From positions 50,165 to 114,164 of the forward strand of contig JAOUKT010000002.1 in assembly GCA_029882395.1 (NCBI GenBank): a stretch of DNA of 64,000 bases. Reading direction: 5' to 3'. Below the pieces are notes generated by a model. That model saw only the letters and a list, made by a program, of their open reading frames with translations, was not told the origin of the DNA and ran no database searches. A program made the position numbers and the translations under genes. This DNA is from Gammaproteobacteria bacterium (GTDB lineage Bacteria > Pseudomonadota > Gammaproteobacteria > SZUA-229). Of this stretch, positions 46,513-46,763 are shown piece by piece. The first letter of the stretch is position 1, and every line of letters begins with the position of its first letter.

Positions 46513-46763
46513 GGGTTTTATTATCCAGTGTTTAAGTGTTATGCAGACTTTAAGGCAGGCACTGCGAATGCGGTATCCGTCATATCTTCTAGTCGCAGGA
46601 CTAGTCGCTAGTGCAAAAGGACTAGTCGATGATTAGTTATTTTGCGTTTATATAGTTTTTAATCTGAACAGATAAAGTGGGTTTATCAAGCATCGTTGGC
46701 AGATAAGACAAAATAGCCGAGGTTGTCTGTAGAACCCATTTGATATTCCATCTATATATATTC

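Follow-up and report, generated by a model that had tools for sequence, protein, structure and literature searches.

A minus-strand operon whose first open reading frame starts at position 46512 of the window (the whole stretch of 64,000 nucleotides, or 64 kb, analysed here, which belongs to a gammaproteobacterial metagenome-assembled genome) is preceded by a compact group of repeats built on CTAG, and the locus raises the question of whether these repeats constitute a regulatory site, and if so, of what symmetry and for which protein. They had been described in the original prediction as three direct copies of a 9-mer in the promoter of an operon for a receiver-like protein and a giant lipoprotein, resembling a response-regulator binding array, with two nearby LuxR- or NarL-type regulators named as the candidate binders. 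The letters of the repeats, their conservation in related loci (designated by L and a number), the genes that accompany them and the known systems that they resemble are considered in turn below.

The CTAG repeats and the organisation of the promoter

The quoted stretch is present at the place given for it and its copies lie in the promoter region of the minus-strand operon, 77-116 bp upstream of the ORF start at 46512 (75-120 bp had been predicted), with marR in divergent orientation. The 9-mer GACTAGTCG has two exact copies in the 64 kb window, at 46599-46607 and 46620-46628, where three had been counted, and the full exact repeat is the 11-nt sequence AGGACTAGTCG, with copies at 46597-46607 and 46618-46628. 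The offset of 21 bp between them agrees with the original prediction; the third copy, CTAGTCGC at 46589-46596, is shortened, has 7 of 9 bases as in the 9-mer and is located 12 bp, not 11 bp, from the middle copy. Two further cores had been left unlisted, namely CTAGTG at 46608, which is the fourth CTAG, and the degenerate TTAGTT at 46633, the fifth core. The core ACTAGT is palindromic, as had been pointed out, and since each core is its own reverse complement, the array takes on the appearance of direct repeats.

The count of the 9-mer by itself is not significant, with 6 matches at one mismatch or less against 5.4 expected in the 64 kb window. The tetranucleotide CTAG, on the other hand, occurs 52 times in the window against 242 occurrences expected from base composition, a depletion of about five-fold, and against 70 expected by a Markov estimate; four CTAG within 40 bp were reached in only 4 of 20,000 random placements. 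Given the five-fold depletion, the four copies found in 34 bp are therefore not a matter of chance. The 64 kb window contains no further copy or cluster of the repeat, so the array is not a generic interspersed repeat of the REP or MITE-like kind, and the possibility foreseen earlier, that the 9-mer might prove to be a common generic repeat, did not materialise within this window.

The anatomy of the promoter was examined in an alignment of ten promoters anchored on the proximal site and drawn from seven lineages together with two extra promoters. The order common to the ten is a distal operator, a proximal CTAGTC-N4-(G)ACTA(G), 4 nt, a TATG-N4-ATAC(C) block and a hexamer, with 32-34 nt between the hexamer and the start codon in promoters whose first gene is the small ORF. 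The proximal operator of the window (46589..46604, assigned to no strand) is the 16-bp palindrome CTAGTCGCAGGACTAG, of the form CTAGTC-N4-GACTAG, which includes the first and second copies of the original prediction; its pattern is found at the same position in all ten aligned promoters. The inner halves of this pair do not vary (in 10/10 the left CTAG is followed by TC and the right one is preceded by AC), as expected of a dimer site, while the outer halves vary, with A in six and T in three of the ten promoters. Since it is the inner halves that are invariant, the functional unit is the inverted repeat.

The distal operator (46608..46625, likewise without strand) is the 18-bp imperfect palindrome CTAGTGCAAAAGGACTAG of the CTAGTC-N6-GACTAG type, and its inner 16 bp, TAGTGCA-AA-AGGACTA, have a NarL-like 7-2-7 layout. 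In the window, L016, L026, L028, L029 and L035/36, this distal form begins 21 bp upstream of where the proximal operator begins. A second distal form, CTAGTC-N4-GACTAG, starts 32 bp upstream of the proximal start in L032 and L038, and further variants of the distal operator are seen in L036b and L035b. The window also has a weak upstream core pair (46622..46636, no strand; CTAGTC-GAT-GATTAG), consisting of core 2 and the degenerate core 1, which is the counterpart of the strong distal CTAGTC-N4-GACTAG in arrays of the second type; in the alignment, L032 and L038 have perfect palindromes at the matching position. Five CTAG cores are in register between the window and L016, with start-to-start spacings of about 11-12, 14, 7 and 12, and the three copies of the original prediction (cores at 46589, 46601 and 46622) are the cores conserved in every lineage. 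Both CTAGTC-N4-GACTAG and CTAGTC-N6-GACTAG are dyad-symmetric sites of about 14-20 bp with two inverted half-sites. The head-to-tail tandem repeats of 10-11 bp that characterise OmpR/PhoB-type sites were not found in the array, which is dyad-symmetric, and no winged-helix regulator is present in the accompanying genes. Thus, the earlier view of the repeats as a response-regulator binding array holds in so far as they behave like a transcription-factor array; the direct repeats on which that view was based have given way to inverted ones.

Downstream of the proximal operator by 4 nt lies the TATG block TATGACGGATACC (46572..46584, minus strand; TATG-N4-ATACC). The TATG-N4-ATAC(C) block occupies the place of the -35 element in all the aligned promoters, has no likeness to TTGACA and may be where a second factor binds. 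The reading of GGCGGATACCGCC as a hairpin was abandoned because its pairing register varies between lineages, the letters ATAC being what is conserved. The putative -10 element is the hexamer TAAAGT (46547..46552, minus strand, read from 46552 to 46547), whose first base is always 32 nt after the T of TATG. TAAAGT is present in the window, L016, L017, L026, L032, L035a and L038, and is replaced at the same position by TAAAAT in L036b, TACAGT in L035b and CATACT in L028/29, with A at position 2 and T at position 6 kept throughout; to judge from these letters, the predicted box varies in the manner of a sigma-70 -10 element. A canonical sigma-70 promoter was predicted on the operon strand in none of four lineages, which fits an activator-dependent promoter, and inspection by eye near the conserved blocks revealed no sigma-54, sigma-28, sigma-32 or ECF-type element fitting in both sequence and spacing. 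The whole conserved non-coding block, comprising the operators, the TATG-ATAC block, the -10-like box and the initiation region, extends over 46531..46642 on the minus strand. Two 16-nt direct repeats 18 bp apart were also observed in the window (46521-46536 and 46539-46554; on the minus strand CTTAAAGTCTGCATAA and CTTAAACACTGGATAA), of which the upstream one contains the TAAAGT box; this duplication is absent from the other lineages.

Conservation of the array and the accompanying gene module

The array promoter is kept in at least seven uncultured lineages. Its invariant companions are a small ORF, a hybrid kinase and a convergent GerE-type regulator, between which the cargo varies or is absent. 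The first gene of the window operon (46132..46512, minus strand) encodes a 126-aa protein that had been called receiver-like. It gave no match to Pfam even at E <= 10, exact-protein look-ups returned no match and a homologue search with the single sequence returned only the protein itself. A profile built from five small ORFs gathered a family of 43 proteins, and PF00072 is matched by 17 of 37 small-ORF homologues. The AF2 model of the 126-aa protein (pLDDT 80.7) has the (beta-alpha)5 order of a CheY-like fold, and its top Foldseek matches in PDB are receiver domains with TM of about 0.7. Homologues and predicted fold thus bear out the earlier label, with the qualification that the phospho-acceptor Asp is lacking: the position at the end of beta3 is occupied by S in the window, by P in L016, L017 and L026, by Q in L029 and by P in the family consensus, which makes the protein a pseudo-receiver.

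The second gene, 42585..46127 on the minus strand, encodes a putative lipoprotein of 1180 aa with TSP3-like Asp-rich repeats, a PKD-like domain and a Gly-rich C-terminal region. This giant protein has few orthologues and is replaced by non-homologous proteins in other lineages. An unrelated 1577-aa protein takes its place in L029 (2285-7018); a 759-aa PKD protein, a 924-aa protein or no cargo at all is found under the conserved promoter elsewhere (cargo loci L032 7374-9653, L035 3164-5938 and L038 8001-10358), and the position of the cargo relative to the small ORF varies among lineages. The third gene, 40644..42467 on the minus strand, encodes a hybrid histidine kinase with HisKA, HATPase and receiver domains (Pfam) and a multi-pass membrane N-terminus of about six hydrophobic segments, the core of which matches the NCBIfam NahK/ErcS family at 402 bits (cutoff 400). 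The response regulator gene at 39994..40635 (plus strand; receiver and GerE-HTH by Pfam) is convergent with the kinase gene and encodes the candidate operator-binding protein. The kinase is a hybrid and neither an Hpt domain nor an Hpt gene was found in any copy of the module, so phosphotransfer to the regulator at 39994-40635 is hypothetical.

One orthologue of the giant protein is found in L016, where it is 51% identical and the same four-gene module occurs in a plasmid/ICE-like context without marR. The minus strand of the window aligns with the upstream region of L016 without gaps over about 110 nt, the encoded proteins being 35-51% identical; in 20-nt windows the identity is 60-80% in the conserved block against 10-45% (mostly 15-30%) further upstream. 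L017 also has the module, with only 46 bp of upstream sequence. The regulator gene in L020 is divergent from the giant gene, and the 180-bp intergenic region shared by the two holds a lone TAGTGCAATTGGACTA, nearly equal to TAGTGCAAAAGGACTA of the window, which adjoins the regulator gene and is 135-150 bp from the start of the giant.

Metagenomes were scanned with a strict pattern made from the four cores shared by the window and L016. The six matches include three true homologues (L026, L028 and L029), in which the cores are conserved by construction, since the search pattern required all four. The other three (L027, L030 and L031) were rejected as unrelated (ACTAGTC)n microsatellites; they are heptamer arrays of up to about 15 copies with the same palindromic core, located at L027 878-985, L030 2020-2075 and L031 4800-4915. 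An unbiased test of conservation is provided by the loci L032 to L040, as these were found by protein homology alone. L032/33/34, L035/36, L037 and L038/39/40 were retrieved through the small-ORF protein family, in the same way that L016 had been retrieved through the giant protein, and every one of the small-ORF-derived loci with upstream DNA carries a CTAG array. Across about 460-473 kb of compared sequence (923 kb counting both strands), CTAGTC-N4-NACTA is found exclusively at module-type promoters. Viral contigs scanned with CGGATACCGC-N17-TAAAGTCT gave no match, and the literature searched for GACTAGTC yielded nothing but cloning primers containing SpeI sites.

The relation of the array to marR is clarified by L029, which is syntenic with the window: the end of priA is followed by the array, the 1577-aa protein, a small ORF and the hybrid kinase, with about 25-35 bp separating the priA stop from the start of the array. 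As L029 has the array without marR, the array goes with the operon rather than with marR. The divergence from marR noted in the original prediction is therefore correct as a description of the arrangement in the window, without bearing on the meaning of the array, which is also present in other loci devoid of marR. Two promoters outside the module display the full geometry, one in L036 (1331-1420, plus strand) upstream of a 214-aa PEP-CTERM protein and the other in L035 (1965-1870, minus strand) upstream of a 539-aa Big_5/SBBP protein. Their occurrence beside the module looks like regulon-like behaviour and suggests, from the sequences compared, a small regulon of secreted proteins. The distant giant homologues L018/19, L021 and L022-25 occur without the module and were left out of the evidence; L018/19 and L022-25 have no array, and L021 has only a weak two-core element.

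The probable binding protein and the alternatives

The only DNA-binding protein of the module is its GerE-type regulator, which follows the kinase in every locus that is long enough (the window, L016, L032, L035/36, L037 and L038/39), and a regulator of this type is thus linked to the array and co-conserved with it, being divergent in L020. The module regulators are 71-80% identical across six lineages and the recognition helix MAENTVRVHVSAILRFL is identical in all six. The best PDB match of the window regulator at 39994-40635 is NarL (E = 2.4e-32), VraR is among its best solved homologues and its best NCBIfam match is ErdR, the score of which (156 bits) is below the cutoff of 390; its score against the NarL equivalog is 142 bits against a cutoff of 250. 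The region upstream of the regulator gene itself has no conserved array; one AACTAGAC is present in the window and none in L016, so this is not a conserved site.

In the light of this association, the CTAG repeats are probably the upstream activating region of the minus-strand operon promoter, recognised by the phosphorylated NarL-type regulator of the module. The operon under the array would deliver the Asp-less receiver, the giant lipoprotein and the hybrid histidine kinase. Dimers of the phosphorylated regulator (39994-40635) would bind both operators, about two helical turns apart, and would recruit RNA polymerase, and the outcome would be positive feedback on the kinase together with signal-dependent expression of the secreted cargo. 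We infer the identity of the binder from its constant presence and its invariant helix, and activation would accord better than repression with such a promoter. The transcription start would be set by the position of the hexamer: if TAAAGT is the -10 element, the operators would be centred near -56.5 and -76.5 (about -88.5 in the second distal form) and the TATG-N4-ATAC block would span -44 to -32.

The array could conceivably be bound by another protein, the possibilities being the 217-aa LuxR-type regulator encoded at 52561-53214, MarR (46799-47248) or an unlinked global factor, and this is considered unlikely. The 217-aa protein was the other regulator named in the original prediction, and it does have proximity in its favour, as its gene and that of its GAF kinase adjoin priA both in the window and in L028, each with an array a few kb away. 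However, among the other loci it recurs only in L028, which is syntenic. L016, L032, L035 and L038, where the module regulator is always found, have no copy of it within 8 kb, and its recognition helix is different; it accompanies priA and not the array. Of the two regulators proposed earlier, only the one at 39994-40635 is therefore co-conserved with the array. As for MarR, its gene is preceded by a perfect 18-bp palindrome, TAGTTGTCTAGACAACTA (46771-46788), placed between TTGACA (-35, 46764) and TATATT (-10, ending at 46792), which from its letters and position is likely to be the autoregulatory operator of MarR and which shares with the array the TAGT...ACTA ends and the central CTAG. Yet its spacing (TAGT-N10-ACTA) differs, it is situated inside the -35/-10 region of marR itself, and marR is absent from every other array locus; with seven lineages devoid of marR, the array does not have the distribution of an autoregulatory or divergent MarR operator. 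A scan of genome contigs with the MarR protein returned only Sphingomonas-type matches of about 33% identity and no relative of the locus. A 79% similar copy of the marR palindrome, GTTGTCTGTAGAAC, is seen at 46722-46735, 51 bp upstream, and it may be remarked that two regulatory palindromes of one intergenic region are both built on CTAG despite its rarity in the window.

A role at the RNA level, whether through hairpins of the 5' leader acting on stability, attenuation or translation or through the distal palindrome as a terminator or insulator, is very improbable. The predicted fold of the minus-strand RNA pairs copy 1 with copy 2 (MFE -28.7 kcal/mol, z = -2.5) and a simple scan flags the distal palindromes of L016, L032 and L038 as terminator-like, but the antisense strand accounts for two of these three flags, a T-rich tail is not kept across the lineages (L026 has AAAAA), the window and L020 have a mismatch at position 5 of the distal stem, and, since the stems do not vary, the fold gains no support from covariation. 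Rfam gave no match beyond two sub-threshold chance hits of 19 and 17 bits against a gathering score of 80, and no promoter was predicted upstream of the array, which in L029 begins almost directly behind priA. The fixed distance to a hexamer that varies and yet keeps A2 and T6 fits a promoter geometry at the DNA level, and the site in L020 is next to the regulator gene, 135-150 bp away from the start of the giant. Least probable of all is the notion that the repeats are a chance or neutral local duplication, the remnant of a mobile element or a recombination site for the exchange of cargo. The two 11-mers are indeed identical, as they would be after a recent duplication, (ACTAGTC)n microsatellites do occur in metagenomes (L027, L030 and L031) and the cargo genes differ between lineages. 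Against this, positions and spacings are kept in seven lineages whose proteins are 25-80% identical and whose spacer bases differ, the array has no recombinase or transposase associated with it, the cargo is usually between the small ORF and the kinase and not beside the array, and the array is also found at separate promoters; the conservation thus appears largely to refute a neutral or mobile origin.

Comparison with known systems and wider significance

The preferred reading, an activating array for the module regulator, invites comparison with the systems to which this regulator is related. The heptamer consensus of NarL is TACYYMT. As with NarL/NarP of Escherichia coli, the array has several sites upstream of the promoter and its distal site is of 16 bp with the 7-2-7 layout; the better distal heptamer, TAGTCCT, matches TACYYMT at 6/7 positions. 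In contrast to NarL sites, the half-sites of the array (TAGTCCT, TAGTGCA and TAGTCGC) all have G and not C at position 3, the proximal site, which is conserved universally, lacks the 2-bp spacer (7-0-7), and nitrate genes are not involved at the array loci. The NarL residues K188 and K192, which we take to be the base-contacting ones, are replaced by R and S in the regulator at 39994-40635. The TACYYMT heptamers in 7-2-7 arrangement that mark the sites of the NarL regulon are accordingly not what the array presents. NarL itself prefers inverted heptamers in the 7-2-7 layout, for example TACCCCTAAAGGGGTA (PMC4549865).

The second comparison concerns ErdR and CrbR, whose binding site, immediately upstream of the core promoter, is the imperfect inverted repeat GAC-N4-GTC (PMC5715377; bioRxiv 10.64898/2026.09.07.749794). 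This ACTU motif of Pseudomonas and Vibrio is needed for activation and is found with a sigma-70 promoter and a leader of 34-36 nt (PMC5715377; bioRxiv 10.64898/2026.09.07.749794). The module resembles the MxtR/ErdR and CrbS/CrbR systems in having a kinase core of the NahK/ErcS family, which is the family paired with ErdR-type regulators, and the half-site letters GACT/AGTC recur, as in the prpE site GACTTTAGTC (bioRxiv 10.64898/2026.09.07.749794). The array differs in its half-site, TAGTC, in reading GTC-N4-GAC and GTC-N6-GAC, the opposite orientation to the ACTU motif, and in possessing two operators instead of one; counted from the presumed -10 element, its proximal site would lie at about -64 to -49, compared with -52 to -36 for ACTU. 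The kinase of the module has a multi-pass membrane sensor where that of the ErdR/CrbR systems has an SLC5 domain, and the targets are secreted proteins where those of ErdR/CrbR belong to acetate metabolism. Neither GAC-N4-GTC or TAC-N4-GTC abutting a -35 element nor an ErdR equivalog, as the ErdR/CrbR ACTU regulon would have, was found for the array. Taken together, the G at position 3, the spacerless proximal site and the GTC-N4-GAC orientation characterise a NarL/FixJ-like operator that belongs to neither the NarL nor the ErdR regulon.

Dimers of the GerE type also bind inverted heptads upstream of a poor -35 element in the case of BvgA (at the fha promoter of Bordetella), SsrB and LiaR/VraR. 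The palindromes of SsrB or LiaR/VraR are of the 7-4-7 type, and ACT...AGT cores are present in the sites of VraR and LiaR. The array module differs from these in motif, spacing and organism alike, and an Asp-less single-domain receiver is not known as the first operon gene in the BvgA, SsrB and LiaR/VraR systems. The operator motif has not been described before and the kind of switch would be an ordinary one. Current ideas on two-component regulation are left unchallenged by the array. Its value is more practical: it gives an uncharacterised two-component system, which metagenome-assembled genomes alone have revealed, a defined operator motif and a constant promoter geometry, allows regulon prediction by genome scanning, and furnishes ready probes for EMSA or DAP-seq. 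The regulon appears to comprise very large secreted, lipoprotein or PEP-CTERM proteins, and the promoter and the signalling genes stay fixed while the cargo gene is swapped between lineages.

A broader interpretation may be entertained tentatively, although it is rather doubtful, namely that the array is the signature of an undescribed portable regulatory cassette of uncultured Gammaproteobacteria, an expression platform for non-homologous giant secreted or PEP-CTERM proteins. Such a cassette would consist of the Asp-less receiver, the multi-pass membrane hybrid kinase of the NahK/ErcS type and the ErdR-like regulator, and would have its own operator code, CTAGTC-N4/6-GACTAG with TATG-N4-ATAC in place of the -35 element; the pseudo-receiver would stand in for, or gate, the missing phosphorelay step. 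The module of L016 (189-3258) is situated beside genes for a T4SS coupling protein, a RepA_C protein and an HTH_17 protein, and from these neighbours the cassette may travel on a plasmid or an integrative element. Palindromes of a different kind were observed upstream of giant homologues that lack the module, GTGACGGACGTCAC in L021 (4600-4620) and GTGACGACCGTCAC in L022 (7908-7925), the latter beside the gene for a divergent Crp-family regulator.
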